A stretch of DNA of 64,000 nucleotides from an uncultured Kiritimatiellota bacterium (GCA_944389565.1 CALXMV010000003.1:15416-79415), one strand, 5' to 3'; counted from the stretch's first letter, positions 6,322 to 60,001 are shown. Numbers and translations are program-made. Notes: generated by a model from the sequence alone, not told the origin.

Positions 6322-9468
<3,147 letters not shown>

Positions 9469-44693: not shown

Positions 44694-46019
44694 TCACCGT
44701 TCGCGCACGACGAAACGTAATTTGCCCCTGTCATGCGGAAGCTCCGCGACTGGCTCAAAAACCACCGGAACCTCGTCATTGAGCTGCCGCGACAGCCGCG
44801 CCCGAATCTCGTCCACCCGCCGACGTGCATCCTCCGACTCCTGCGCCGGGACGTAAGCCACCGTGATGGAAGCATCCCTGTGCTGCGTCACGCGGAAACC
44901 ACGCACCAAATCCGGATCGTTGTCGAAAAGCGTCGTGAGGAACTCACCGTTCACCACGAGCCCGGAAGGCAAGACGAACGATTCCGACTCACGCCCCTTG
45001 ATCGAATCGATGAGCGGCAACGAGCGTCCGCACGCGCACGGCTTCCCCAACCAACGCCCTCGGTCGCCGTTCTCGTACCGGATGAGCGGAAAGACGAAAT
45101 CCTCCAGATTGGTCAGCAACGCCCGGCCATATTCCCCCACGGGCACAGGCCGATTGTCCCCATCCACGAACTCGATGGCCACATGCTCCACATTCACGTG
45201 CAACCCATCCTCCTCCGGGCACTGCTGCGCGACCCAACGAATCTCGCACGACCCGTACTGGTCGCAGACCGGCGCACGGAATGCCCGCTTCAGCAGGGCC
45301 CGTTGCACCGGTGAGAGCGGTGCCGACGTCACCCACACGCACCGCGGCGCCCACACTTCGAGACCACGATCCAAAACGAACTGCGCCAACTGCGTGACCG
45401 CCCCCACATACCCCTGCAACAAGGCCGGCCTCGCCTGATCGTAACGCGCCAGAAACGCCCCCATCGAGCGCTCATCCATGAAACTCGCGTCCAGCTTCAA
45501 ATGACGCGTCGGCCACCACATCGCCGCGTTCTTCAGGCGAGCCAAACGCGATGCCACCGGCACACGCCACACATACGCATGATCGTCCCACGGACGGATC
45601 CCGAACCAGGACTGCAACCGCCAACTGTAAATCGCCTCCGGGACACGCCCGTCATATCCCGTCTTCGTCGGGGTCCCCGTCGAGCCTCCCGTCGTCGAGA
45701 CCCGCCGGAACCTTCTCAATGCCGGGTTCGTCATCTCCTCGAAATGCTCCCGGATCTCCGCCTTCGTCACGATCGGCAATTTCTCGAACCACCCCTCCTG
45801 CCCCATATCCCCAAGCCCAAACCCCGCCTCCCCGTAAAACTTCTTGTAGAACGGCACCTGCGTCACCGCCGCCGTGACAAGCCGGCGCTTCGCGGCCTCC
45901 TGTTCGCGCAACAACGCCTCCGGCGGCCGCCGCTCATTGCCCACCAAGACGCCAAAACGCTTCCACGCCCCAGGCATCGCCAAGACGCACTTCGCACGAA
46001 ACAACATCGACCGTGACAT
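44694..46019 (-). CDS. Phenylacetate--CoA ligase family (CapK-like) adenylate-forming protein
   Basis: LPIVTK, STTGGSTGTP, DQYGSCE, FPLIRYENGD, IKGRE, RGKLRFV. Confidence 0.85.
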   Translation of the reverse strand: MSRSMLFRAKCVLAMPGAWKRFGVLVGNERRPPEALLREQEAAKRRLVTAAVTQVPFYKKFYGEAGFGLGDMGQEGWFEKLPIVTKAEIREHFEEMTNPALRRFRRVSTTGGSTGTPTKTGYDGRVPEAIYSWRLQSWFGIRPWDDHAYVWRVPVASRLARLKNAAMWWPTRHLKLDASFMDERSMGAFLARYDQARPALLQGYVGAVTQLAQFVLDRGLEVWAPRCVWVTSAPLSPVQRALLKRAFRAPVCDQYGSCEIRWVAQQCPEEDGLHVNVEHVAIEFVDGDNRPVPVGEYGRALLTNLEDFVFPLIRYENGDRGRWLGKPCACGRSLPLIDSIKGRESESFVLPSGLVVNGEFLTTLFDNDPDLVRGFRVTQHRDASITVAYVPAQESEDARRRVDEIRARLSRQLNDEVPVVFEPVAELPHDRGKLRFVVRER

Positions 46020-46025
46020 AATCCG

Positions 46026-47210
46026 TTACCCTCTCGGGGAGAAAACCCCTGACGTGCTCCCACCCCGCAACACTTTTTTGGTCATCTTGCGCAGGACAAT
46101 CACAATCGCCCTGCACCAATCACCGAGCGTGAACCCCATCCGTCCCCGATATGGCCATGCTTGCAATGCGTATTCATTCCGCTGAATCAGACCACGCAAA
46201 AGCTCCGCGAGATACTCCCCACGATGCGATTTCACGTAATCGACATCGAACGTCGCGGCGAACCGTCCCAATGCCTCATCCCCACCGACCGCCAACAGCT
46301 CAAGAACCGTCCGCATACACTTCGGGCAATCCCACGTGCCGTTGCGCGTCCCTTCCGCATGACCATTCCAACACACGTCCAAATGCCGCTGCGCCAAAGG
46401 GAAATCCACCAGCGCCCGGACCTTGTCAAGCCGTGTCCCCATCCCATCGGCGATAACCTTCAGGCCATGCACGGAGCAGACCTGCGTCAACAACAAATCA
46501 TAGTGCGCCACGTCAATCGTCTGAACCGGCGACAAAAACATCTCATTCACCGAATAGCCTGTCGCGAGATAATACCGAGCGAAGAGACCACGCAGACAAT
46601 ACACGGCGAACAGATTGGCGAGCGTCGAATGATTTTCGAAGACAAGCCCAGGGGCGGAGGCCCCGTCATAATTCGTATCCCCAACAATCAACGCGACCGA
46701 GGCCTCTTGCGCCACCTCCCGCGCATGCTCCACCAACTCATCGAACAAGGCACGCTTGTCCTTCGCGGCCGTCCCACCATGGCAATTGTTGATGACCACG
46801 TGCGTCACCTCGTGCCGATGCATGTACATCGTGTACATCGAGTCAACCCCACACGTGATGCTACAACCTACCCCCCCCCCGCACCCATCCGATGCGATTC
46901 GTTCCGCGGAGATACGGAGCGGCTCCATCGAGGGGTTTGCCGCGCACATCGTGGGCGAGAAAACCTCCGTCAGATTCTGGATCAGATCCTCCGAACACGG
47001 CGCCTCGCTCACGACCTCATGTCGGCCGATGATGACCTCCTTCAGCAACCCGATTACCCACGGGTCACCGTAATCCGCGCAAAGATATTGCCCAAACCGC
47101 TCCTCGACCTCATACCACAGCGGATAGACCTTCCCGTCCACGTCAATGTCCGCGGACACCCGTGCCTTCCCCTCACGATGGGAAATCGTCGGCTTACGAA
47201 TCGTGATCAT
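46026..47210 (-). CDS. Conserved glycan-locus hypothetical protein (PP-loop-like motif)
   Basis: ITCGVDSMYT, GTRLDKV, HLDVCW...DCPKCMRT. Confidence 0.65.
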   Translation of the reverse strand: MITIRKPTISHREGKARVSADIDVDGKVYPLWYEVEERFGQYLCADYGDPWVIGLLKEVIIGRHEVVSEAPCSEDLIQNLTEVFSPTMCAANPSMEPLRISAERIASDGCGGGVGCSITCGVDSMYTMYMHRHEVTHVVINNCHGGTAAKDKRALFDELVEHAREVAQEASVALIVGDTNYDGASAPGLVFENHSTLANLFAVYCLRGLFARYYLATGYSVNEMFLSPVQTIDVAHYDLLLTQVCSVHGLKVIADGMGTRLDKVRALVDFPLAQRHLDVCWNGHAEGTRNGTWDCPKCMRTVLELLAVGGDEALGRFAATFDVDYVKSHRGEYLAELLRGLIQRNEYALQAWPYRGRMGFTLGDWCRAIVIVLRKMTKKVLRGGSTSGVFSPRG

Positions 47211-47219
47211 AATACGCTC

Positions 47220-48575
47220 TCAATCCGCGATAACATCACTAATGATATACTTGATCTTACCTCGATTATGCGGGATAAAATCCTTGTACTCCACAGTAAG
47301 TGGCAACGATCCAAGCTGACGTTGCAAATTGGCTGCAACCGTTGCAATGGCTTTCTCCGCATCCGGGTAAGCGTGGTTCATAACAACAGATAATGTCACC
47401 GATTTGTCCTGATGTTGATGAATCTGGAAATTGTGGATGGCATTCAAGCAATCATCGAATGCCGTCGCCCAACATTCGCCAGCGATTTTACCATGTTCCA
47501 AATAAATGAAATCAAACGACCGTCCATGCACGGCATCCATCAACGGAAAGGGACGCCCACACGCACAACGTCCAGGCAACAACCGTCCTCGATCTCCGAG
47601 TCTATAGCGAATGATCGGGAAAACACGATCCATGCAATCCGTCACCAAAATATCCCCCACCTCGCCAACCGGCAAGGGAGTTCCAAACTCATCAACGAAC
47701 TCCAAATGCCGATAGTCACTGTGGATATGCAGGGCCGGGCTACTTATTTCTGCCAAATGTCGGCATTGATTTGCCATCGGATGCGCCTCCGTCGCCACAT
47801 AGTTGTCAAAAACCAAACACCCAAAAGCACGCACGATATCCGCACGAACCGTGCTCGACAACGGGGCCGCGGTCGTAAAAACAGCATCCGGCGCTGGCAA
47901 TTTAATCCCCTGTTGCAAACAATAAACCGCCAATTGATGGATACCACCAACATAGGAGGAAATCCGACGCGGTTTATAATGGCGCCATTGTCTTATGAAA
48001 CGCTCGATCTTTTCCTCTGACATATCCCCTGCATCCAACATAATGTTAGTGGCAGGGAAATTCGCCAAGAAATGTCGAAACCGCGTCTTCCATGTGGCAT
48101 GATGCGTGCGCATGATGGTCGCGGAATTCCCACCTACCGGGACTCCCGTCCATGTCCCCGCCCGCCAATTCATGACGACAGAACTGAACCCATCATCCTT
48201 CAACACCTTTGATGGCTCACCCGTGGATCCTCCCGTAGTATATAGTTTGTACGTGGACTGCGGATGAGCGACTTTAATCGTTTCAAAATTATACCGTAAC
48301 GCCTCGCGGGTCAACATCGGGACCTTCGCCCAATCTTCTTCCGTCTTGACATCGCCAGGCTCCAACCCCGCGGCTTTGTAGAGAGCATGATAATACGGGG
48401 ACTCCTCATATGCGAACTTCAACAAATCCAACCGTAGCCGAAAGTTGAATTCTGCGAGAGCCTCGGGGGAGAGCCGTTCGTTAGCCATCGACTGCCGAAA
48501 CTGTTTCCACCATTGCGGCTTGGCCAAGCGACACCGTATCTCACGCCATTTCTCAGCAAATTTGTCTGTTTTCAT
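47220..48575 (-). CDS. Second phenylacetate--CoA ligase family (CapK-like) protein
   Basis: SPYY, VPMLTR, TTGGSTGEP, FPIIRYRLGD, VHGRS, RGKIKYI. Confidence 0.85.
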   Translation of the reverse strand: MKTDKFAEKWREIRCRLAKPQWWKQFRQSMANERLSPEALAEFNFRLRLDLLKFAYEESPYYHALYKAAGLEPGDVKTEEDWAKVPMLTREALRYNFETIKVAHPQSTYKLYTTGGSTGEPSKVLKDDGFSSVVMNWRAGTWTGVPVGGNSATIMRTHHATWKTRFRHFLANFPATNIMLDAGDMSEEKIERFIRQWRHYKPRRISSYVGGIHQLAVYCLQQGIKLPAPDAVFTTAAPLSSTVRADIVRAFGCLVFDNYVATEAHPMANQCRHLAEISSPALHIHSDYRHLEFVDEFGTPLPVGEVGDILVTDCMDRVFPIIRYRLGDRGRLLPGRCACGRPFPLMDAVHGRSFDFIYLEHGKIAGECWATAFDDCLNAIHNFQIHQHQDKSVTLSVVMNHAYPDAEKAIATVAANLQRQLGSLPLTVEYKDFIPHNRGKIKYIISDVIAD

Positions 48576-48586
48576 AATTCATCCTC

Positions 48587-49792
48587 TCAATGAATTGGCA
48601 TCGTTCTCAGAAGCAAACACGCGAGATCTTTCGCTTTGCCCGTCATGAATGAACGGCGCACACCAAGCCGTACCCCCATCGCTTCCGCAAGCAGGTCACG
48701 ATGACTTTCGCATTGCACGTAATTGTACTGCACTAAGGGATAATTCGATTTTTCCGTTCCACGAAAGAACGCCCAGAGCGTGCGCATCGTATGATAAAGT
48801 CGCTTAAGCCAATCCCGCAAAGACGGACGATGGCCGTCCACCGGATAAAAGCCAAGGTTATGCTCATACAATGAATGGTATAAATCAATAGCGACAGTCT
48901 GCCACGCGCCTCGATAACATGCCTCGTCGTCCAAAACATCCTGCAACGCGGCAAGATATGCGTCCGCGACCTCAGAGCGTTCAATCTTGTCAATCCGAAC
49001 TCCGCCCCCCTCTTCCACAATTCGAACAGGCACGACCTCGCTGAGCAAACTGCCGTCCGATGCGAAAGAGAGATGAACGGTCAAAGACCAAAGCGTATTG
49101 GCGGACTTTCCCCATCTCGCGGGATCTACAAGGAAATTCCCCAACCCATAATAAATCCGCCCATGCTTATAAGTTTCCCATCCCTGCGGAACATGTGCGT
49201 GATGCCCATGAACGACATCCGCCCCCGAATCAATCAAGGCTCGATACCACGCCCGCGCTTCCGGCGTTGGGATGGGGGACATCTCCACCGCGGCATGCAC
49301 CGAAACGATTACGGCATCCACACGCTTTCTCAGCTCACGAATGGCGTCAAACATCCATGCCCCCAAGGGGGCAATACCTGGCACGCCATCATCTGCCATC
49401 CCAAATTGGTGTTCGGCACACGCAAGAATTCCGATGCAACGCCCGGCCTCTTCCACGATGATGGGGGCACACGCACGTTTGGTCTCATCCCCCGCCCCAA
49501 CGACAGGGATGCCACGTGCGCCGCATCGCACCAAAGTCTCCTTCAACCCCTCCACGCCAAAATCCATCATGTGATTATTGGCCAAACAGAAAATCCAACG
49601 GGGGCCCTCCGCCACAAAACCATTCCACACGCGTGGGCCGGCTTTGCGTGGTGGCTCAGGGCAAGACCACTTGGCACGCTCCCCGATCCAAGGCCCCTCC
49701 AAATTACCCAACACCCACTCTCCGCCATTGAGCCAGGCGGGCAGAATCACATGATTTGTGAAACCGACATGGTCTCCCACCAAAAACATCAC
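48587..49792 (-). CDS. CapA/PgsA-family metallophosphoesterase-like protein
   Basis: VGD, GNLE, LANNHMMDFG, VSVH, GADVVHGHHAHVPQG, YGLGNF. Confidence 0.85.
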   Translation of the reverse strand: MMFLVGDHVGFTNHVILPAWLNGGEWVLGNLEGPWIGERAKWSCPEPPRKAGPRVWNGFVAEGPRWIFCLANNHMMDFGVEGLKETLVRCGARGIPVVGAGDETKRACAPIIVEEAGRCIGILACAEHQFGMADDGVPGIAPLGAWMFDAIRELRKRVDAVIVSVHAAVEMSPIPTPEARAWYRALIDSGADVVHGHHAHVPQGWETYKHGRIYYGLGNFLVDPARWGKSANTLWSLTVHLSFASDGSLLSEVVPVRIVEEGGGVRIDKIERSEVADAYLAALQDVLDDEACYRGAWQTVAIDLYHSLYEHNLGFYPVDGHRPSLRDWLKRLYHTMRTLWAFFRGTEKSNYPLVQYNYVQCESHRDLLAEAMGVRLGVRRSFMTGKAKDLACLLLRTMPIH

Positions 49793-50826
49793 ACCCCTCC
49801 CAGACGTTTAGACAAATCCAGAACCCGCTCCGCAAAAACCGCCCGACCGAATTTCGACGCACAAGCCACGGAAGCACGCTGGGCCTGGTCAAAGCGTAGG
49901 CTGTCCCATCCCATCAATGTCCGCATGGCATTCGCAATCGAACCGACACGCATAGGATTGAAGGATAAACCATTCGCCTTTGTCAGGAAATCCGGCGAAG
50001 CCCCAATCCGGTCACTCAAAAGCAAGGCACATCCAGAGAGCGCAGCCTCATGCACCACGACCCCCCAATGCTCCTCACGGCTAGCCAAGACAAAAGCCTT
50101 CGCGGCCTGATATTTTTCGGACAGCTCGACCGGTTGCAGGAAATCATTCACCACGATTCTTGGATGACACGGGATCCGATTCCGCAAAGGGCCTCTGCCA
50201 CAAAACTCCAATGTCCACGTCGGATACTCATCGGCCACGCGAAGAAAGGCCTCTGCAACTGCCAACACATTTTTGCGCTCGTTCAATTGCCCTACGCATA
50301 AAATAACATTCCTGCGCTCCCCCATTGGCTTTCGACAGCCAAATGTCGTGTCATCCCCTGAGTAAAACCCCTTCACGATGCGTTCTTTCGGCACGCCAAA
50401 GAAACGCAACAGACGCGTCCCACTTGCCCCTGGCACAAAAAACGCGTCAAACATTCCACGTTGCATCAATCGAAAACGCGCTGCCCGTGCCACATTCCTC
50501 CATGTCAACTCCCAATTGTTGTCCACGCAACACACCACAGGGCGCCCTGCCTTCCGGGCCTCCCTGCAAAACCTATTGAAAATTGGCTCATTCCAACCCG
50601 ACGTGAAAACAACTCCATATTTCGTCCCACATAAATCCTCCAACGTACATGTCTCTGAGGGCTTAACCCAGACAATCCGCCCGCCGAACATATTCTCAAT
50701 CCCCTCATAGGGGAATGAAGACCTGATTGCAACAATCGTCACGGCCGCATATCGCTTCCGTAACGCCTCCAACGCCTGTACCCCATATGCCGTCAGACCA
50801 TTCCAGAAAAAAAGAATCTCGCGCAT
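49789..50826 (-). CDS. Glycosyltransferase family 4
   Basis: CVGQLNERKN, FVLASREEHWGVVVHEAALSG. Confidence 0.87.
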   Translation of the reverse strand: MREILFFWNGLTAYGVQALEALRKRYAAVTIVAIRSSFPYEGIENMFGGRIVWVKPSETCTLEDLCGTKYGVVFTSGWNEPIFNRFCREARKAGRPVVCCVDNNWELTWRNVARAARFRLMQRGMFDAFFVPGASGTRLLRFFGVPKERIVKGFYSGDDTTFGCRKPMGERRNVILCVGQLNERKNVLAVAEAFLRVADEYPTWTLEFCGRGPLRNRIPCHPRIVVNDFLQPVELSEKYQAAKAFVLASREEHWGVVVHEAALSGCALLLSDRIGASPDFLTKANGLSFNPMRVGSIANAMRTLMGWDSLRFDQAQRASVACASKFGRAVFAERVLDLSKRLGGV

Positions 50827-50861
50827 TTCACACCTCAATCAATTACTCCCCTACTCCCCAT

Positions 50862-51623
50862 TCATCCACGCCTCTTGGAAGTTCTAAAATGCCTGACAAA
50901 GCACGCCGCCACAACGAAAAGCGAATCCAATGCCTTCCCTGTCCCACGACATACCACATAGATAATCCGTTTCAGAAAAGTCCTATGTTCCTGAGGAACT
51001 TCAATTCCCGTAGTTCCAATGTCTGAGAGGAATTGAGTACAATTTTGCGTGCAACACCGCGGGTGTGCGTGATAAAGTGCCAAAATGTGCATACTGACCC
51101 ATCGCCCCCAAAAATCACACGGAACTTTCAAAGGCAGATTTGCTTTTAACAACGCAATCGCCGCCGTACGGGTCAAAACATATCCTTCTGTCCTGATATC
51201 CGATTGCGTCGGATAGATTCCCTGTGCGCGTTCCACGTTCTTCCCAGTATGATTGGAGAGCAAGACCACCTGCGGCTCTCCGGGGCGCACCCATGCCTCC
51301 ACACGCCGTAGCTGATCGGGGAACGCGTCTTCCAAGAGCACGTCGTCCTCCAAGACGCATGCCATCGGAATCCGCTCCTCCACCATGCGTCGATAAATGG
51401 CGTAGTGCGACAACGCGCATCCGATTTCGCCATCACGGATGGTGCGCCCAACCGCGCACCACCACCGAAAACGATTCACGGCGCGTCGCTTTTCCTCCTC
51501 GGGCAAGGCCTTGCCGTAGACTGCGGGGAAGCGCTCGTATTCCACGCCGAGGCGTTTCAGCTGGGCATCCGCGGCCGCAAGCCGATCCGGGTTTTTGTCG
51601 AGATTGATCAGGAAGACTTTCAT
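50862..51623 (-). CDS. Glycosyltransferase family 25
   Basis: VFLINLDKNPDR, ERFPAVYG, GEIGCALSH, VLEDD. Confidence 0.88.
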   Translation of the reverse strand: MKVFLINLDKNPDRLAAADAQLKRLGVEYERFPAVYGKALPEEEKRRAVNRFRWWCAVGRTIRDGEIGCALSHYAIYRRMVEERIPMACVLEDDVLLEDAFPDQLRRVEAWVRPGEPQVVLLSNHTGKNVERAQGIYPTQSDIRTEGYVLTRTAAIALLKANLPLKVPCDFWGRWVSMHILALYHAHPRCCTQNCTQFLSDIGTTGIEVPQEHRTFLKRIIYVVCRGTGKALDSLFVVAACFVRHFRTSKRRG

Positions 51624-52645
51624 GAGCGACCTATCCCCAAAACTTCACGTATGGCAAGATCCGAGCAATCATGGGCGAGCTGGAGCTGACGCCAATGCGG
51701 CGTGATGCCTTTATAACCGCGCATCTGGCAGATTAGGCAAAGCACCCGCCACAGCAAGGGGACATGAAGGAATGCGTAGAGCAGACGTTTCCCCCAGAGC
51801 ACGCGCCATCCGAGGCAACGATGATAGGATTCTCCCCGCTTGCGCCAGACATAGGTGTCCGCGAAGGCGTGCCACAGACGGAATCGGCCGGAGGCGACCT
51901 CCCCGTATTTGCGCACCCATGGATTGCCGCACACGTAGTGCACCACGGGGCGTTCGGCAAGTTTTTCGTCGGTCAGGAAAATCTGCAGGCGGTCGAACTT
52001 CTGTGGGGCAAAGGCCTTGTGTCCATGGAAGACGACATTCATGGCCGTCTGGTCCGGGAGCGCGACGTCCGGATAATCCTTGAAGAACTGCTGAATCCGC
52101 TCGGGGATTTTGTCTTCACGGCATTTCTTGAAATTGAAAAGCATGACCCCGGAATTGAAATACTCCGAGTCCGGGATTGTCACCCCGCACCGCCGCGCGG
52201 CCCACTCGCACTCCCCCCGCCGGCAACGTTCGGATTCCTCTTGGACGACCACCGCGTAGGCATTTGCGTCACGATAGGAGAAATGCTCCTCGACGGAGGC
52301 CAGATAGAGCACGTCGCAATCCAAATAGAGGCACCAATCCACATCCTTCAGGATATACGGGAAGAAGCACCGCACACTGGCCATGCGCGACCCGGCCCAG
52401 TAAGGCAGCCCGGCGAGGATGGTCTCATCGCACACGTGCTGCTCCACGACCCCATTCGGGTGAAGTCGTGACAGGACCTCCCTCGCCTCCTCCATCGTCT
52501 CTTGGCGGACATCCTCCGTGAACACATGAAAATGCAAAGGCGTCTCCCGCCGTGCGAAAGCCGCCACCCCGGCCAACGCCACGAGAGCCCCTGGCATATA
52601 CCTCTCATTCGCCGCGACCGCTACGTGAAAAGTCTCTTGCGCCAT
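51620..52645 (-). CDS. Glycosyltransferase family 8
   Basis: LYLDCD, YFNSGVMLFN, PDQTAMN, VVHY..GNPW. Confidence 0.88.
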   Translation of the reverse strand: MAQETFHVAVAANERYMPGALVALAGVAAFARRETPLHFHVFTEDVRQETMEEAREVLSRLHPNGVVEQHVCDETILAGLPYWAGSRMASVRCFFPYILKDVDWCLYLDCDVLYLASVEEHFSYRDANAYAVVVQEESERCRRGECEWAARRCGVTIPDSEYFNSGVMLFNFKKCREDKIPERIQQFFKDYPDVALPDQTAMNVVFHGHKAFAPQKFDRLQIFLTDEKLAERPVVHYVCGNPWVRKYGEVASGRFRLWHAFADTYVWRKRGESYHRCLGWRVLWGKRLLYAFLHVPLLWRVLCLICQMRGYKGITPHWRQLQLAHDCSDLAIREVLGIGRS

Positions 52646-53630
52646 TATTTTTGCTCCTCGACCACGCCTTCAGGCGGACACACCGCCCAACGAACCATTG
52701 GCTGACAGTATACCAAGGCGTCGCCCAAAAAAGCAAGGCCGTTGTGCGGAATGCGATGGTCGTGCCATGTGTCCCCCAAGCCATGCGCAAAAGCGCCCAC
52801 CTCCACCGGCGATACCACGCCACCCGCGTCTGCCGGTCAGACAAACGCGCCATCCACCCCATCTGGCCCAGTGCCAAAACCTTCTCGCAATTGCGCAAGA
52901 CGTCCCGTGCGACCGGTCGTGCCCCAGAAACGTACAGGCCAAGAATCGCGCTCCAAGCACCCCATTCGCTTTGCAACCGCGCCACCGAGACAGACGATGT
53001 CGTGGCGGAGCCTTCCCGTCGCCGATACCAATAAAGCGGTATCTCCGCCAAAACAACCCGCCGTGCACGACAAAACCACATCGTCATGAACAGCACATCC
53101 TCGGAATGCGTGAACGGGCGAAACCGGATTGCTCCCCCTCGCGGCATCCGATAGGCGAATTCCCAAAAGCTGTGCCGAGCCAACGCCAATGAGATCCCAT
53201 CCTCGGCATTGATGACACGCACGCCCCCAAGACGAGGAATCGTCTTCCCCACGTCCTCCCATGTCTCTCCCATCCGAAAGGCGATCATGTCCGCGTCCGG
53301 GCACCGAGCGTCCAACTCCCGGATCGTCGCCAACCACGTAGGCGCAACCGCATCGTCGCCATCGAGAAAAAGCAACCACCGTCCCCGAACACGCCCCAAC
53401 GCCCGATTTCTGGCGGCCGCCACCCCCGCATTTCGTTGATGGATGACATGGAAGCGCCCATCCCCCCGCACCGCCTCGTCCAAATAACCTCCCCCGCCAT
53501 CCGCGCTCCCATCATCCACGCACCAACACTCCCACAGGTCATAAGTTTGCCGTGCCACGGACCGCAACGCCTCATGGATGTACGCCCGAACCATGTACAC
53601 GGGGACGACAATCGAAAAATCAGGGGGCAT
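52605..53630 (-). CDS. Glycosyltransferase family 2 (first gene of the leftward operon)
   Basis: FSIVVPVY, CVDDGS, HQRNAGVAAARN, FLDGDD; AAGGAG/GGAG RBS directly outside cassette 1. Confidence 0.87.
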   Translation of the reverse strand: MPPDFSIVVPVYMVRAYIHEALRSVARQTYDLWECWCVDDGSADGGGGYLDEAVRGDGRFHVIHQRNAGVAAARNRALGRVRGRWLLFLDGDDAVAPTWLATIRELDARCPDADMIAFRMGETWEDVGKTIPRLGGVRVINAEDGISLALARHSFWEFAYRMPRGGAIRFRPFTHSEDVLFMTMWFCRARRVVLAEIPLYWYRRREGSATTSSVSVARLQSEWGAWSAILGLYVSGARPVARDVLRNCEKVLALGQMGWMARLSDRQTRVAWYRRWRWALLRMAWGTHGTTIAFRTTALLFWATPWYTVSQWFVGRCVRLKAWSRSKNNGARDFSRSGRGE

Positions 53631-53651
53631 AGCTTCTCCGAGACTCCTTTG

Positions 53652-53752
53652 GGCGTTTAGACGGACGTTTAAACGCACTACCCCGGGAATCGGATTTGCT
53701 ATACTTTGTGCGTTTGTTTTCACCCGTGCGTTTAAACGTCCGTTTAAACGCC
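53652..53752 (+). promoter_or_regulatory. Putative invertible promoter cassette 1 (core GA/TC), promoter currently facing right
   Basis: 27-bp inverted repeats 53652-53678 / 53726-53752 (1 mismatch) enclosing TGCTATACT at 53697-53705. Confidence 0.8.
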
Positions 53753-53781
53753 GCACCTGCGTCACAGAAAGGGCGTCAGCC

Positions 53782-54936
53782 ATGTCGAGCCAATCTTTGC
53801 GGATTCCTCCCGCGGAGGAACTGATTTCCACGATTCTTCAGGTACGGGAGTGCCTGCGCACGGCTGACCCGGAAGACGTTGGGGCCCCTCGTGACTTTCC
53901 CATCCCCGATCCGCCCAAGGCGCCACCGCTCGTCAGCGTCGAGGTTTTGGTCTATAACCAAGCCCGTACCCTGCGCCATTGCGTCGAGAGCATTGTGGCA
54001 CAAAAGACCGACTTCCCATTTGAGATCATCATCGGCAACGATTGCAGCACCGACGATTCATTGGACGTGGCCCGCGCCCTACAACGTGAGCATCCTGACA
54101 AAATCCGCATTCTTTCCACGCGCCGGAACGTCGGGCTCAACCGTAACGCTCGGAATGTCCGCCGCGCCATGCGCGGGACGTTCGCGGCATTTTGCGAGGG
54201 GGACGACTGGTGGCTCACCGAGACACGCCTGCAAGGACAGGTCGACCTCCTTCGCGCGCACCCGGAAGTCTCGCTCGTGCATGGATACACGCGGTTCTAC
54301 GACGAAGCCTCGGGGGCGCTCACGGAGAACGCCTTGCGATTCCGCCTGCCACCGAACCGCTTCGCGAGAATCCTTGATGAGACCTATCGTGTCGAGACCG
54401 CCGGGGTTGTCTGCCGTGTGAGGGATCTCTTGCGGATCTACGACGAGTGCCCGCATCTCATCGACGCGCGTTTCCGCATGCTCGACACGCAACTCTTCTG
54501 CCTGCTTGCCTCATGGGGTGATGTCGTCTGCCTTCCCCACCCCGTTTCGGTCCGCCGCTATTCGGGCCATTCGCTAAGCCGCAACGGGGATCTCGCCAAG
54601 AGTCTGACCTACCACGACAACGCCTTCGCCATGATGCTCACGCTCTGCGACCATTTCCGCCAAGGCCCAAGGGCACGGGCACGTATCGCCAACCACTATC
54701 TGTCGAGCGCCTACCAAGCGCTATGCAAGGTCTTCACAAGGCGCGAGGCCTCTCACGTCCTCCGTACGCTCTATCCAGAGTTCAAATTGAGAATTGGGTT
54801 ATTGCGGCTTTTTCCGGAACCGCGTAACCGCCTGCTCCGAAAGCTCTTCTATCATTTTCTCTTTCCGGTCGCCAAATACAGGCATAGTTTCAAGAGTGAG
54901 CCCGTGCCCACCACACGCGTAGCTTTTGGCGGTTGA
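53782..54936 (+). CDS. Glycosyltransferase family 2
   Basis: LVSVEVLVYNQ, QKTDFPFEIIIGNDCSTD, AFCEGDDWW...LQGQVDLL. Confidence 0.87.
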   Translation: MSSQSLRIPPAEELISTILQVRECLRTADPEDVGAPRDFPIPDPPKAPPLVSVEVLVYNQARTLRHCVESIVAQKTDFPFEIIIGNDCSTDDSLDVARALQREHPDKIRILSTRRNVGLNRNARNVRRAMRGTFAAFCEGDDWWLTETRLQGQVDLLRAHPEVSLVHGYTRFYDEASGALTENALRFRLPPNRFARILDETYRVETAGVVCRVRDLLRIYDECPHLIDARFRMLDTQLFCLLASWGDVVCLPHPVSVRRYSGHSLSRNGDLAKSLTYHDNAFAMMLTLCDHFRQGPRARARIANHYLSSAYQALCKVFTRREASHVLRTLYPEFKLRIGLLRLFPEPRNRLLRKLFYHFLFPVAKYRHSFKSEPVPTTRVAFGG

Positions 54937-55921
54937 TTCGCCGTTTGACCCAATAAGGCATCACACACAGAATCCAGGCCACCCACGGCCGCCGGAAACG
55001 CGTCAGCACCCGTAACGCCATGCGTTGCCACGGGGAGAACGTTGCGTCGATATGCGCAATCGCGTCCAATGCCACCAACCAGCGTCTCCATAAGGCCTCA
55101 CGACGGACCTGGCCCATAATCTCCGATGCGATGCGCTCCACCACGCCACCATACAGCATTCGCACGAACGATGCGTCCCGCGCCAGCGGCGTGCCCATAA
55201 TCGCGACGAACGCGGCCTCGCCAAACGCGATTCCGTCCGCGACACGCTTCTCCGTAACGGCACTTCGCATCGCCGAGCCTTGACGCAAGCGTAACCCATA
55301 CGGCTTCCACGCCTGAATCGCCGCCACGCGCATCCGGACGATGGCCCGTATCAAAAACAGCAAATCCTCCCCGTATCTCAGCGTGACGTCAAAACGCAAC
55401 CCATCAAGCAACCCACGGCGGTAAGCCACCTCACAGAATGCTCCATACATGGCACGATGATCCGCCGGAGCGCCATCCGCGCCAAGTGTCACAAAGCGTT
55501 GCCCAAGCGGGACCGGACAAGACGGGAAACACACACCATGCTCATCCCCCACGGTCGCCCGAAAAAGAACGGCATCCAAATCCCGCGGGGCGGTCTCGAT
55601 CGTCCGCGCGACCTCCCGCAACAGATGCGGATGAAAGAGGTCATCCCCGTCCAAGAAAAGCACCCACTCGCCACGTATCCGCGCCAACGCCCGATTCCGT
55701 GCCGCCGAGACGCCCCGATTGGGTTGGTGAACAGCCCGAAAACGCGCATCCGCACGCACGGCAGAATCCACGATTTCGTCCAACCCATCCCCGCTCCCAT
55801 CATCGACGCAAACGCACTCCCAACGGAATTCCGATTGCGCCAAAACCGAGGCCAAACACTCTTGAAGATACGCGCGCACACGGTAACAGGGGACAACGAT
55901 CGAAAACATTCGCCGAGACAC
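54890..55921 (-). CDS. Glycosyltransferase family 2
   Basis: FSIVVPCY, CVDDGS, HQPNRGVSAARN, FLDGDD, YGEDLLF; GGAGG RBS. Confidence 0.87.
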   Translation of the reverse strand: MSRRMFSIVVPCYRVRAYLQECLASVLAQSEFRWECVCVDDGSGDGLDEIVDSAVRADARFRAVHQPNRGVSAARNRALARIRGEWVLFLDGDDLFHPHLLREVARTIETAPRDLDAVLFRATVGDEHGVCFPSCPVPLGQRFVTLGADGAPADHRAMYGAFCEVAYRRGLLDGLRFDVTLRYGEDLLFLIRAIVRMRVAAIQAWKPYGLRLRQGSAMRSAVTEKRVADGIAFGEAAFVAIMGTPLARDASFVRMLYGGVVERIASEIMGQVRREALWRRWLVALDAIAHIDATFSPWQRMALRVLTRFRRPWVAWILCVMPYWVKRRINRQKLRVWWARAHS

Positions 55922-55935
55922 GAATCAACCCTCCG

Positions 55936-56044
55936 ATGGTGCGTTTAAACGACCGTCTAAACGCATCAGTGAAACGATGACGAGAAGTATAGCAAAACCG
56001 TGTGACGGGGGTAGTGCGTTTAGACGGTCGTTTAAACGCACCAT
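55936..56044 (-). promoter_or_regulatory. Putative invertible promoter cassette 2 (core AC/GT), promoter currently facing left
   Basis: Perfect 30-bp inverted repeats 55936-55965 / 56015-56044 enclosing TGCTATACT on the minus strand at 55986-55994. Confidence 0.82.
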
Positions 56045-56070
56045 TTGTTTGTATCGCTGTCTGCAAGCCA

Positions 56071-57063
56071 ATGATTTACGATTGTTTCACCTTCTTCAAC
56101 GAACTCGACTTGCTCGAAATCCGCCTGAACATTCTCAAGGACGTCGTGGATCGCTTCATCGTCGTGGAGGCGACACAGACTCATCAAGGGGCGCCCAAGC
56201 CCCTCTTGCTTCAGGAAAACATCGCCCGTTTCGCACCGTTCAAAGGCAAACTCATTCACGTCATCGCCGACAATCCACCCTCCTCATCAGGTGCGCCGCG
56301 TGACGCGAATGGCAACAACTGGGTGATCGAGAATTGGCAACGTGCCAAAATCGACGAAGCATTGCAAAATTGTCAGGACGATGATGTCATCATCGTCTCG
56401 GATCTCGATGAGATTCCACGACCGGAGGCCATCCTGCGCAACCACCCCCGTCCCGGCATCACGACCCTCTGCGTGGACAACTACAATTTCTTCCTCGACT
56501 TCCGAAGTTCCGAGCCGCCCTTCCCCGTCATCAAAATGGTGCGCTACGATTATTATCGGGACGTACTCCCGCGATTGCCCTTCCCTGAGAACCAAAAATT
56601 CCGTTTTTTGCCTTGTTACTGGGGAACCTCAAACCCAAACAAACTCCGTGCCATGGACGGGAATCGCCTCATCCCCCACGGAGGCTGGCACTTTTCCTAT
56701 CTGGGTGGTCTTGAGCGCGTCCTGAAAAAACGCCAATCCATCGTCGAGCAACAGTACAATGACGCGGAGACGACCACGGCGCAATGGGTGTCACGGCGGA
56801 TCCGACAAGGTCGCGACATCTATCGCCGCGGGTATCTTTTCTATCCCACGGCACGCTCCCTACCGAACTTCTTGCGCCGTAACCGGAAACGCTACGACCA
56901 TCTCTTCTGGCACCCCTCCGCCCCTTGGGAGAGATCGCTCCTCACGATGCGTTTCATGCTGTTACGTCTCTGCAATCACGCTGTCCGATTTGGGCGACGC
57001 ACCAAACTTCTCACCCCGTTTGAACGACTCATCCCCATCATAAAGCGACTGATTACCCGATGA
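56071..57063 (+). CDS. Glycosyltransferase family 17 (beta-1,4-GlcNAc-transferase-like)
   Basis: MIYDCFTFFNELDLLEIRL, FIVVEA..THQG.PKPL, ENWQR, IIVSDLDEIP, GGWHFSYLGG. Confidence 0.85.
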   Translation: MIYDCFTFFNELDLLEIRLNILKDVVDRFIVVEATQTHQGAPKPLLLQENIARFAPFKGKLIHVIADNPPSSSGAPRDANGNNWVIENWQRAKIDEALQNCQDDDVIIVSDLDEIPRPEAILRNHPRPGITTLCVDNYNFFLDFRSSEPPFPVIKMVRYDYYRDVLPRLPFPENQKFRFLPCYWGTSNPNKLRAMDGNRLIPHGGWHFSYLGGLERVLKKRQSIVEQQYNDAETTTAQWVSRRIRQGRDIYRRGYLFYPTARSLPNFLRRNRKRYDHLFWHPSAPWERSLLTMRFMLLRLCNHAVRFGRRTKLLTPFERLIPIIKRLITR

Positions 57064-57067
57064 AACC

Positions 57068-58252
57068 TCAATCCCTCAAAGAAAGGTTCTCGCGGAGCCA
57101 AGAGAGGGATGAGGCGCGAGCGGCGGAGAGGGCGGGAAGATCGTAGGTGATTGGGGCGGCAAGGGATGCAAGGGCGGAGAGGAGGTCGGGGGCGATGAGG
57201 GGACCTGAAGTATAACGGGCGGCGAATTCCTCGATGCGAGCGAACATCCCTTGGCGAGCGGTTGTGTCGGGACGGAGGATACGGACGTTTTTACCAAAGA
57301 TGGAAGCAAACATCAACGCGTGGAAGGAGTCGGACACAATCCAGTCGGCTTGGGCGAAATCTTGGAGGAACTCGCGTGGGCCTGCATCATTTCGGACGCG
57401 AACGGAAGAGAACCCAGTACGCAGACGGAACCAGAGGTGCTTCATCAAAGGACGAGGAGCCAAGCGGACGGCGTAGGCACCGTCACGTAGGACGTGGATG
57501 TCGCAATCGTTCCGCTTGGCGAATGCTTCGAGCAAGGGCCAGACGCGTTTGAGATCGACGGAGAGGAAATAACAGACGAGACGTCTGCGCCTCGGGGGAG
57601 AAGGGGGTGTCCGTCCAAATGCGAGCATACGCCAAGCATCAGCGGGGACAAGTTGGGTGGGATCGAGCACATGGGTGGCTTTGGCGCCGACGGAGGCCGC
57701 GAGGGTTACCCCCTCGGCTTCGCGGACGGAAATCGCGGCGAATCGGCGCAGGCCCTCGCGGAAACGCACGACCCAGTCGAGTGGGATAGCGCGTATCCCG
57801 AAACTGGCAGCGTAAGCGATGGCATGTAACCCTTGCGGCGCACCTTCGAGGAGATAGACGCTGGGGTCACCCCAGTCGCCACAGTGCCATACTTGATCGC
57901 TCCCGATGACAAGACCGTCCAAGCCTAGGTCTTTCCCCGCCACGTCCGGCCATTCATGAAAGTGGTAAGGCGTGAGACGCATGGTCTCACGCACGAAGCG
58001 CATGGTGCGCCAATGGCGAACGGTTCGTGCCCATTGGCCGCACCCGAAGCACGCGTGGATCAGAAACGAGCCCCACGCTTTGAGGGACATTCGCGCAAAA
58101 GGCCCGCGTAGCGTGACGTTACGCGAATCAATCCAACGGTCAACCACAGAGACATCGTGCCCCAACATACGCAAGGCCTGTTGCCCAGCCCAAGCCTGTA
58201 ACACGCCTCCATAATTCAACTGGGAATGGGTGGTCAGTACACCAACTCTCAT
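57068..58252 (-). CDS. Polysaccharide pyruvyl transferase family protein
   Basis: NYGGVLQAWA, IGSDQVW, AYAASFG, ISVRE, VLDPT, VSDSFHALMFASIF. Confidence 0.88.
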   Translation of the reverse strand: MRVGVLTTHSQLNYGGVLQAWAGQQALRMLGHDVSVVDRWIDSRNVTLRGPFARMSLKAWGSFLIHACFGCGQWARTVRHWRTMRFVRETMRLTPYHFHEWPDVAGKDLGLDGLVIGSDQVWHCGDWGDPSVYLLEGAPQGLHAIAYAASFGIRAIPLDWVVRFREGLRRFAAISVREAEGVTLAASVGAKATHVLDPTQLVPADAWRMLAFGRTPPSPPRRRRLVCYFLSVDLKRVWPLLEAFAKRNDCDIHVLRDGAYAVRLAPRPLMKHLWFRLRTGFSSVRVRNDAGPREFLQDFAQADWIVSDSFHALMFASIFGKNVRILRPDTTARQGMFARIEEFAARYTSGPLIAPDLLSALASLAAPITYDLPALSAARASSLSWLRENLSLRD

Positions 58253-58320
58253 GCCGCGACCCTCCATTGTACGCACGGTGAAAACGTCAGAATGGCAATA
58301 CGCATCGCAAAAACCAAGTG

Positions 58321-58423
58321 CGGCGTTTAAACGTACGTCTAAACGCCCCACCCTTCGCGGACGGATTTGCTATACTTTACGCACTGTTTTCACCCGTGCG
58401 TTTAGACGTACGTTTAAACGCCG
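58321..58423 (+). promoter_or_regulatory. Putative invertible promoter cassette 3 (core TA), promoter currently facing right
   Basis: Perfect 26-bp inverted repeats 58321-58346 / 58398-58423 enclosing TGCTATACT at 58368-58376. Confidence 0.82.
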
Positions 58424-58435
58424 GGGAAAGGGAGG

Positions 58436-59998
58436 ATGATGACGGAGAATCGGCGGATATTCTGGAATGTGGTGGCGACTTACGGGCGGTCGTTGTTCAC
58501 GATGGGGTGCGGGCTTTTCACGAGCCGTTGGGTGTTGATGACATTGGGGGAGGTGGATTATGGGCTCTATGGGGTGGTGGGTGGGCTGACGGTGTGCATC
58601 GGCTTCCTGAACGGGTTGCTCTCGAACGCGGTGGGGCGGTTTTACGCATTCTCGGTGGGGCAGGCGCGGGTGGCGGGGACGCAGGGCGAAGGCTTGGAGG
58701 TGTGCCGGCAATGGTTCAACAGCGCGTTGGCGATCCATTGCGTGGTGCCATTGGCCTTGATGGCGGTGGGGTACCCCATCGGGGAGCACGCGGTGAGGGC
58801 GTGGCTGACAATCCCGCCGGAACGCGTGGAGGCATGCGTGTGGGTCTTCCGGATTGTGTGCGTGACAAGTCTGGTGGGGATGATGAGCGTGCCGTTCCGC
58901 GCGATGTACGAGGCAAAGCAATATATCGCGGAGTTGACGATTTACAGTTTCGTGACGGCGACGTTGAATGTGTGCGTGCTTTATTACATGGTGTCGCACC
59001 CGGGGGATTGGCTGACACGGTATGCGCTGTGGACGGCGGTGTTGGCCATCGCGCCGATGGTGATCATCGCGGTGAGGGCGGTGTTCATCTTCCCGGAATT
59101 GCGGTTTCGACCGGCGTATCTGTGGGATTGGCGACGGACACGGGCGCTCGTGTATTTCGCGGGCGCGGAGTTCTTCGGATGCCTGGGGGTGCTCTTGCGG
59201 GGACAGGGGGTGATGATCGTGGTGAACAAGTATTTCGGCCCGGCGACGAACGCGGCGATGACGGTGGCGACGTCGGTGAGCAACCACTGCAACACGCTGA
59301 ACGCGTGCCTGCAGGGGGCGTTTTTGCCGGCGATCACGAACGCGTGCGGCGCGCGCGATTATGGGCGGATGCTCGCGCTCACCTACCGCACGTGCACGAT
59401 CGGCTCGCTCTTGGTGCTGCTTTTCGCGTTGCCGTTGGCGTTGGAAATCGACGAGGTGCTGCGGTTATGGCTGAAGCATCCGCCGGAATATGCCGCAGGG
59501 CTGAGTCTCCTCATGTTGGCGACGCTGGTGGTCGATCGCTTGGGGCGCGGGAGTATGCTCGCGCTGAATGCGAACGGCAAGGTGATGGCGTACCAGTTGG
59601 TTTCGGGGACACTTTTGATCCTGACCTTCCCGGCAGCGTGGCTCTTCGTGGCGCTTGGGTTCGGGGTGTATTCAATCGGGTGGGCGTTCGTGATTTTCAT
59701 CGCGGCGCACATCCTGAGCGCGATCTGGTTCGCGCGGAAACTTGTGCGCTTCTCGTTTCGCCACTGGGTCAGGAGCACGGTGTTGCCGATCGCCATGCTG
59801 ACGGCGATTTGCGGCGCGGCGGGGACGTTGCCGAGACTGTGGATGGAGCCGTCTCTGTGGCGCGTGGCGATGACGACGCTGTGTTGCGAGGCGATTTTAT
59901 TGCCGCTGGCGTGGGGCTTGGTGCTCACTCCCGAGGAACGCGCGTTCGTGCGTGAGAAACTCCGCCAAGCATTGGGACGCTTGGCGAAAAAGGAATGA
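58436..59998 (+). CDS. Wzx/MATE-like oligosaccharide flippase
   Basis: NRRIFWN...TSRWVLMTLGEVDYGLYGVVGG; many TM segments; GGAGG RBS. Confidence 0.85.
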   Translation: MMTENRRIFWNVVATYGRSLFTMGCGLFTSRWVLMTLGEVDYGLYGVVGGLTVCIGFLNGLLSNAVGRFYAFSVGQARVAGTQGEGLEVCRQWFNSALAIHCVVPLALMAVGYPIGEHAVRAWLTIPPERVEACVWVFRIVCVTSLVGMMSVPFRAMYEAKQYIAELTIYSFVTATLNVCVLYYMVSHPGDWLTRYALWTAVLAIAPMVIIAVRAVFIFPELRFRPAYLWDWRRTRALVYFAGAEFFGCLGVLLRGQGVMIVVNKYFGPATNAAMTVATSVSNHCNTLNACLQGAFLPAITNACGARDYGRMLALTYRTCTIGSLLVLLFALPLALEIDEVLRLWLKHPPEYAAGLSLLMLATLVVDRLGRGSMLALNANGKVMAYQLVSGTLLILTFPAAWLFVALGFGVYSIGWAFVIFIAAHILSAIWFARKLVRFSFRHWVRSTVLPIAMLTAICGAAGTLPRLWMEPSLWRVAMTTLCCEAILLPLAWGLVLTPEERAFVREKLRQALGRLAKKE

Positions 59999-60001
59999 AT
60001 G

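Follow-up and report, generated by a model that had tools for sequence, protein, structure and literature searches.

Introduction

Invertible promoters under the control of master invertases are a main source of surface variation in gut bacteria. Well-studied invertons measure 150 bp or more, those flipped by the Mpi (FinA) invertase of Bacteroides fragilis being ~170-230 bp long, while the Hin and Gin invertases flip 1-3 kb segments in which lie the invertase gene and an enhancer bound by Fis, and rely on a single core at their sites; among shufflon enzymes, Rci is a tyrosine recombinase. In the Mpi regulon of B. fragilis, as described in PMC4747536, one serine invertase serves 13 regions, among them seven promoters of surface polysaccharides (PS), and the same source gives the enzyme of a Bacteroides shufflon, Tsr0667, as a tyrosine recombinase. 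An inverton of Akkermansia is reported in PMC11892184 with ~157 bp between 17-bp repeats. Here we analyze a stretch of 64,000 nucleotides from an uncultured Kiritimatiellota bacterium (GCA_944389565.1, CALXMV010000003.1:15416-79415; hereafter the window, in whose coordinates positions are given), in which positions 53652-58423 span three cassettes, each consisting of a promoter between two inverted sites with a central dinucleotide (the core). These sites had been picked out beforehand from the sequence alone (the original prediction). We consider it probable that the cassettes are three unusually small Mpi-type invertible promoters, each an either/or toggle between two divergent polysaccharide-modification genes, which operate through a proposed core-dependent mechanism.

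By the enzyme test the window system belongs with the Mpi regulon of B. fragilis and, to judge from its sequence, it works alike. The recombinases encoded in this genome pass the NCBIfam Mpi equivalog model, the enzyme gene lies away from most of its putative targets, and the promoter segments lie within inverted repeats at surface-polysaccharide loci. The differences are that the segment measures only 75 bp; that each switch chooses between two divergent single genes, whereas in B. fragilis one operon is turned on or off; that the promoter is of an extended -10 and not of the Bacteroides -7/-33 type; that the sites are near-perfect dyads which carry several pair-specific cores and are otherwise identical; that a coding-region shufflon uses the same site family; and that the host is a high-GC uncultured gut bacterium. 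New here, relative to Mpi-type invertons, are very small either/or toggles with pair-specific cores; the 75-bp segment is unusually small, and we do not claim it as the smallest known inverton. No enrichment over control was found for a palindromic 12-mer taken from the shared inner motif in any of B. xylanisolvens, B. ndongoniae, Prevotella denticola, Alloprevotella tannerae or an Akkermansia metagenome-assembled genome (MAG), and a putative 10-nt site consensus of B. fragilis was not enriched in B. xylanisolvens; no claim is made on core usage in Bacteroides.

With Hin/hix and Gin/gix the system shares a small serine invertase and ~26-bp sites made of two inverted arms around a 2-bp crossover core. 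For Hin, alteration of a single base pair in the core of one hix site blocks ligation of the recombinant orientation (PMC4817059), and partner cores match in all systems described below. In contrast to the segments of Hin and Gin, the 75-bp segment holds only a promoter, the enzyme gene lies elsewhere, and several cores occur in one genome; since there is no invertase gene in the segment and no room for an enhancer, this is not a strict Hin/Gin-type switch. Engineered att pairs of Bxb1 and phiC31 with an altered central dinucleotide reportedly recombine only with a partner of the same dinucleotide (PMC10661055 and PMC5062993), and differ from the present pairs in being laboratory constructs of unidirectional integrases, the pairs here being natural, reversible, clustered and presumably orthogonal. 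A further likeness is with the shufflons of R64 (Rci), p15B (Min) and Bacteroides (SusC/D), because a locus on contig 41 of this genome combines one expression site with promoterless copies, inversions and a single core. There, unlike in those shufflons, the crossover would fall in a signal-peptide coding region (..LN-A/V-PL..), the site family is shared with promoter toggles, and the enzyme is likely a serine invertase.

Recombination Sites and Their Cores

The window contains six 24-bp sites of the form GCGTTTARACG-NN-CGTYTAAACGC, which constitute three inverted pairs. The pattern GCGTTTARACGNNCGTYTAAACGC gave 6 matches as against 0.00 expected from 100 shuffles, with no further copies in the window, and the sites and cores lie exactly where the original prediction had placed them. 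In cassette 1 the left site (53653..53676, GCGTTTAGACG-GA-CGTTTAAACGC) has its core at 53664-65 and the right site (53728..53751, GCGTTTAAACG-TC-CGTTTAAACGC) at 53739-40. In cassette 2 the left site (55941..55964), which lies within a 30-nt inverted repeat of 100% identity, has the core AC at 55952-53, and the right site (56016..56039) the core GT at 56027-28. Both sites of cassette 3 (left, 58323..58346; right, 58398..58421) have the palindromic core TA, at 58334-35 and 58409-10, respectively. The cores match in the inverted sense inside each cassette and differ between cassettes (GA/TC, AC/GT and TA/TA), as had been claimed, and the anatomy of the sites, with two inverted arms and a 2-bp core, bears out the proposed serine-invertase-like geometry.

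When the 12 half-sites were compared, 10 of 11 arm positions were invariant and the remaining one was A or G, while both core columns contained three different letters each. Inverted-repeat fits for cassettes 1, 2 and 3 were 26, 28 and 27 of 30, as against direct-repeat fits of 22, 24 and 23 of 30, and a repeat search returned inverted arms of 27 nt (96%), 30 nt (100%) and 26 nt (100%), respectively. The half-site CGTTTAAACG is a palindrome in its own right, so that the polarity of a site can come only from its core, the A/G position and its flanks. The core-to-core distance is 75 bp, or about seven helical turns, in all three cassettes and also in a fourth cassette elsewhere in this genome, while one strain has 76 bp and relatives range over 73-77 bp; the conserved spacing of the original prediction thus holds exactly within the window and loosens beyond it.

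Promoter Segments and Divergent Target Genes

The 51 bp between the sites of each cassette hold TTTGCTATACTT, an extended -10 promoter (TGn-TATAcT). The motif TGCTATACT is the usual promoter of the genus: it also stands at fixed places in this genome, upstream of start codons, the same extended -10 motif is found in relatives upstream of tRNA-like sequences and start codons, and all of 27 other genomes from the genus contained the promoter 16-mer, the reversed control pattern being near 0. A TTGC-type -35 element is often visible at the fixed promoters of relatives, and none is visible in the cassettes. The center of the -10 hexamer falls 0.5-1.5 bp from the center of each 75-bp segment, such that the flipped hexamer keeps the same place on the opposite strand. 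Outside the promoter, the inner sequences of the cassettes are already scrambled.

Every window cassette lies between two divergent genes for a glycosyltransferase, a pyruvyl transferase or a membrane protein, and in the window cassettes 1 and 3 are directed to the plus strand and cassette 2 to the minus strand. The inner segment of cassette 1 (53677..53727) carries TGC-TATACT on the plus strand, with the hexamer at 53700-53705, 0.5 bp off the cassette center, and is aimed at a family 2 glycosyltransferase gene (53782..54936, plus strand); if flipped, it would be aimed at a second family 2 glycosyltransferase gene (52605..53630, minus strand), which heads a minus-strand glycosyltransferase run (GT8, GT25, GT1 and PGA_cap). 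The inner segment of cassette 2 (55965..56015, minus strand; AGTATA at 55986-55991) is aimed at a further family 2 glycosyltransferase gene (GT2; 54890..55909, minus strand), the target in the flipped state being a family 17 glycosyltransferase gene (GT17; 56071..57063, plus strand). That of cassette 3 (58347..58397, plus strand; TATACT at 58371-58376) is aimed at the gene for a 520-aa membrane protein (58436..59998, plus strand), which may be a flippase, its MatE/MOP match being weak and below cut-off; the target in the flipped state is a polysaccharide pyruvyl transferase gene (57068..58252, minus strand). The four genes that lie between cassettes form single convergent units; hence each switch picks one of two genes, and three either/or switches give eight combinations.

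Natural Inversion of Cassette 3

Logan contigs were compared for four metagenome runs (X3, X4, X5 and X13), none of which is the likely source of the window; the stretch is present in metagenome runs from chicken gut as well as in others. A contig of 2655 nt (depth 57.5) from X13, a run of another study, carries 58347-58397 on the strand opposite both flanks, with 58266-58346 and 58398-678 collinear with the window and the joint ambiguous over exactly the 26-bp repeat. Cassette 3 therefore lies in the other orientation in the X13 strain, and for this one cassette the flipping that the original prediction supposed is seen in nature. In the same contig 1122 other letters replace 57136-58266, which is nearly the whole pyruvyl-transferase gene, with the flanking cassette and the 3' end retained. 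The pyruvyl-transferase slot of X13 thus holds a different gene, at which the flipped promoter of cassette 3 is aimed, and the genes between cassettes look like exchangeable slots.

Cassette 1 had the window orientation in X3, X5 and X13, with one extra T in X13 that gives 76 bp, and cassette 2 had it in the one X3 contig that spans it. In X5 and X13 the contigs break at cassette 2, because its perfect 30-bp repeat breaks a k=31 graph irrespective of flipping, and a separate 109-nt unitig found there in both runs was for the same reason rejected as evidence of a flip. Contigs over 52500-55964 and 56016-60000 were collinear with the window, and no joints between different cassettes were listed in the four runs. 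In these ~98%-alike strains no differences were listed for cassettes 1 and 2 at either sites or cores, nor for cassette 3 at its left site; the flanks varied. The piece with the right site of cassette 3 had two other letters and the inner-segment piece one, at unspecified positions. For the low-depth runs no contig piece was listed for X3 near 58351-58397 or for X4 at 53323-53665, from which nothing was concluded.

Candidate Invertases

The assembly (2.26 Mb in 72 contigs, 95% complete) encodes two proteins with a Resolvase domain (Pfam, E 6.6e-35 and 1.7e-33), on contigs 5 and 6 and thus away from contig 3, which holds the window. Against NCBIfam NF009949 (master DNA invertase Mpi family) these paralogs score 314.7 bits for the 208-aa protein of contig 6 and 277.5 bits for the 198-aa protein of contig 5, both above the equivalog cut-off of 272 bits, so that the genome does contain serine invertases, the class of enzyme to whose sites the original prediction likened those of the window. 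The further proposal that one enzyme serves all three cassettes is not established, given the presence of two Mpi paralogs, which share 61% identity and diverge most in the C-terminal DNA-binding (helix-turn-helix) part. Among solved structures the contig-6 paralog was matched best by those of Gin invertase (4m6f and 3uj3), with an alignment over the full length (residues 1-191), in which its YIRVSTDKQ stands opposite the YVRVSTNDQ of Gin at the catalytic-serine motif and the RLGRS motif is kept. The gene for this paralog lies ~3 kb from the fourth promoter cassette.

Genes with a Phage_integrase domain (tyrosine recombinases) number two in the genome and none in the window, and the one inspected looks like XerC/D; no dedicated tyrosine invertase was found in the genome, these two tyrosine recombinases, at least one of them Xer-like, being the only ones. 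With Xer-like enzymes as the only alternatives and one paralog 3 kb from a cassette, an Mpi-family enzyme would presumably be the one that inverts the window sites.

Mpi-family genes over the cut-off were present in 16 of 24 other species of the genus and fall into two groups which correspond to both paralogs here; comparison of the distribution of paralog types with that of site types in relatives gave no clear match by which the sites could be assigned to one paralog. Homologs of the contig-6 paralog came from gut bacteria of many phyla, with 61-88% identity among the matches listed (Bacteroides and Prevotella, 66-69%), and the nearest named record among those matches was from an uncultured Lentisphaeraceae bacterium. 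These Mpi homologs (loci L042-L121) were found in animal-gut MAGs labeled Bacteroidales, Clostridia, Treponema, Fibrobacter, Akkermansia, Endomicrobia and others; such a broad phylum range hints at wide horizontal spread, with the proviso that MAG labels may err. An inverted-repeat scan of the retrieved loci around Mpi homologs from many phyla found no cassette of this kind alongside them.

Further Cassettes, Shufflons and Core Matching in Relatives

The original prediction had called for core pairs to be tabulated across the genome and in relatives, and in this tabulation partner cores matched in 12 of 12 systems from five species: five in this genome (G000; the three window cassettes, a cassette on contig 6 and a three-site shufflon), four in G006, and one each in G007, G014 and G003. 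The contig-6 cassette (C6:36009-36108; core TC/GA, 75 bp, the same promoter 16-mer) is flanked by genes for a hexapeptide acetyltransferase and a pyruvyl transferase. The outer arms pair well as inverted repeats and the inner arms do not, the deviant arms being GCATTTAAACG and an A/T-rich inner arm like those of G006 and G007.

The only other sites of the window pattern in this genome are three on contig 41 (C41:5642-12030), which have the core GG/CC at each, are 0.7 and 5.7 kb apart and alternate in orientation. These sites fall within coding sequence, where a signal peptide ends (..LLNAPLNAA..), such that one copy stands after a start codon and signal peptide and the other two sites head promoterless alternative gene copies. 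The genes encode a ~220-250-aa secreted protein of no known family, and each copy is followed by a gene for a PEP-CTERM protein. The shufflon is kept in the genus, with the core CC at all sites in G000 and G006 and TC in G014 and G003 (two sites seen in each), where the Ala codon GCC becomes the Val codon GTC. The core has therefore changed at all partners together between species, as it should if it serves as the crossover overlap. It follows from this comparison of sequences that partner sites need matching cores, as would be predicted from the serine-recombinase mechanism.

In relatives the arms differ, while the inner motif (T)AAA(C/G)G-NN-C(G/C)TTT(A) and the layout persist. A 73-bp cassette in G007 (core GA/TC) stands before the ortholog of the GT17 gene, and G006 has a 73-bp cassette (TC/GA) to which a further GA site, 1.1 kb off, is added, a 77-bp cassette (TA/TA) before the ortholog of the contig-6 acetyltransferase gene, a split pair with an AC site at a contig end and its GT partner at the start of another contig, and a shufflon of four sites, all CC. 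The two sites of the 73-bp cassette of G006 and the further site (locus L216, contig C16; 1954, TC; 2027, GA; 3049, GA) have one core at all three, and the first can pair either 73 bp away, for a promoter flip, or 1095 bp away, for a flip of promoter and gene, which makes this a nested switch. At 6814-6870 of locus L201 (G007, contig C19) a promoter of the same type has a degenerate site on one side only and may be what is left of a cassette whose orientation became locked.

None of the 24 other species examined from the genus contained the exact site pattern, and a single match, with two mismatches, was found in 16 genomes of other genera of the order. A metagenome scan with the site pattern returned 40 contigs with one site each, all of which were rejected as unrelated low-GC DNA with tandem CGTTTAAACG-type repeats and no pairs. 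Of 20 further promoter matches in G020, G004 and G007, scoring was possible for 18, and their flanking repeats never exceeded 15 of 26, as compared with 20-25 for true cassettes, and 29 promoter loci from other genomes yielded no further cassettes.

Proposed Mechanism and Alternative Explanations

In the mechanism that we propose, and that we regard as well grounded, each 24-26 bp site would be bound by a dimeric small serine invertase of the Mpi family, whose gene lies elsewhere in the genome, and the two sites of one cassette would synapse. Staggered 2-bp cuts would then be made at the central dinucleotide, one half would rotate by 180 degrees, and religation would leave the 75-bp segment, with the extended -10 promoter at its center, inverted. 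As religation requires complementary overhangs, both sites of a cassette must share their core in the inverted sense. Sites of different cassettes (GA, AC and TA) could synapse yet would yield no recombinants, and as a consequence the three switches, which are 2.2 kb apart, would act as independent bits with 8 glycosyltransferase combinations. Within this scheme we infer the acting paralog, the position of the crossover, the block between cassettes and the formation of a 75-bp loop. The 51 bp between bound sites must, by our estimate, bend about as tightly as nucleosomal DNA, and because the cassette is no longer than the footprint of RNA polymerase and has the -10 element at its center, polymerase and invertase would be expected to compete or to cooperate.

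Mpi-family enzymes, core co-variation and the chemistry of the family together make it likely that cassettes with mismatched cores cannot recombine with each other, and if this block is real, the single genes between cassettes would be protected from deletion or inversion. The proposal in the original prediction that core mismatch insulates the cassettes thus finds support in the chemistry (PMC4817059) and in the co-variation of partners; selection of distinct cores for insulation is no more than possible, as three random cores are all distinct with P=0.70. We can envisage, more tentatively, an addressable multi-bit glycan memory, in which one Mpi-family invertase would act on all sites, the cores would be selected, evolvable addresses that keep the toggles and the shufflon orthogonal, core changes would spread by conversion to all partners, and polymerase or a nucleoid protein at the central promoter would supply the bend for synapsis and so couple flipping to promoter occupancy; taken as a whole, this remains a doubtful extension. 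Iida and Hiestand-Nauer (1986) reportedly described "localized conversion" at mismatched cix cores of phage P1, a possible route by which a new core could spread to its partners.

Several observations weigh against the interpretation of the cassettes as core-dependent invertible promoters. A length of 75 bp is far below the persistence length of DNA, and no DNA-bending factor, such as the cofactor suggested in the original prediction, was identified. The core TA is palindromic and so is unable to give cassette 3 polarity; something besides the core, perhaps the geometry of the short loop, must favor inversion over excision in this cassette. Cassettes 1 and 2 were never seen flipped in the four runs, and the flip of cassette 3 is a difference between ~98%-alike strains in assembled contigs, with no reads that show both orientations in one sample. 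Contigs drop rare variants, such that the missing inter-cassette joints are weak evidence, and the crossover point is unmappable because the repeats are perfect where it would show. As its inner arms are unpaired, the contig-6 cassette may be dead, decaying or locked. With regard to the cores, the probability that random cores are all distinct, with ten address classes, is still 0.47 for four, and GA/TC is used twice in this genome, in cassette 1 and in the contig-6 cassette.

The alternative that survives best retains the same switches and enzyme and treats the core differences as a neutral by-product, the core drifting freely so long as partners stay alike, which conversion in the course of recombination could for instance ensure, and independence arising from the 75-bp geometry or other controls. 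The probabilities for random cores and the reuse of GA/TC speak for it, as does the scrambling of the inner sequences outside the promoter, and so do the orthologous cassettes: the GT17 cassette has AC/GT here and GA/TC in G007, and the acetyltransferase cassette has TC/GA here and TA/TA in G006, which indicates core turnover and not conservation of addresses. Against this, family chemistry implies that a mismatched core blocks religation whatever its origin (PMC4817059), the shufflon core CC is used by no promoter cassette in G000 or G006, and the shufflon sites 0.7 and 5.7 kb apart are evidently partners, so that distance alone does not define partners. Weighing these points, we judge neutral cores to be an unlikely explanation, if one that deserves to be kept in mind.

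Rather improbable, in our assessment, is an explanation in which the two Mpi paralogs recognize different arms and independence comes mainly from arms and enzymes instead of from cores. Their divergence in the helix-turn-helix part, the two groups of Mpi proteins in relatives and the deviant arms of the contig-6 cassette are all compatible with such a division of labor. However, one half-site family is common to all six sites of the window and the three of the shufflon, such that at least these nine would see the same enzyme, and G006 (93% complete) has a single Mpi match and yet contains promoter cassettes and a shufflon.

The toggles could also be the work of a tyrosine recombinase with 8-bp arms and an 8-bp overlap (ACG-NN-CGT), the dinucleotide then being comparable to a lox spacer variant. 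The central NN does lie within a stretch able to serve as a 6-8 bp overlap region, and tyrosine recombinases likewise need overlap homology; this explanation is nevertheless very improbable in view of the meager and apparently Xer-type complement of Phage_integrase-domain genes described above and the presence of Mpi-family genes, one of them close to a cassette. Finally, that the palindromes are operators of a looping repressor which flank each promoter without any flipping is scarcely credible: each site is a dyad with palindromic half-sites and the paired sites lie ~7 helical turns apart around a promoter, but cassette 3 is inverted between collinear flanks, the pairs fit inverted better than direct repeats and have complementary cores, and the same sites occur in a shufflon, where they lie within coding sequence and the alternative copies of the gene have no promoter.

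The locus provides a natural test case, in which the arms are identical and the cores differ, the switches lie within 2.2 kb of each other, and shufflon partners change core together between species. In a literature search we found no paper linking invertons with crossover dinucleotides, nor one that addresses how numerous switches under one enzyme could stay independent without deleting or scrambling the intervening DNA; in surveys of invertons the core is worth reading besides the repeat. The working size of a serine-invertase switch would be pushed down to 75 bp, with a natural flip seen, which raises the question of how the synapse forms, and if confirmed, the cassette would be a compact, reversible and multiplexable switch for synthetic biology.

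Base Composition and a Separate Repeat Family

The polysaccharide locus at 46001-60000 has a GC content of 0.54-0.60, as compared with 0.65-0.74 over most of the remaining window, which fits a horizontally exchanged island. In G009 and G003, inverted repeats of 20-27 nt with units of the GACAGC/GACAGT type lie 82-109 bp apart just upstream of the Mpi gene. Repeats of the same type occur at a second place in the stretch from G009 and in that from G014, and all of these (L020, 2168-2308; L021, 2160-2299; L195, 17044-17201; L194, 17139-17277) constitute a separate repeat family.

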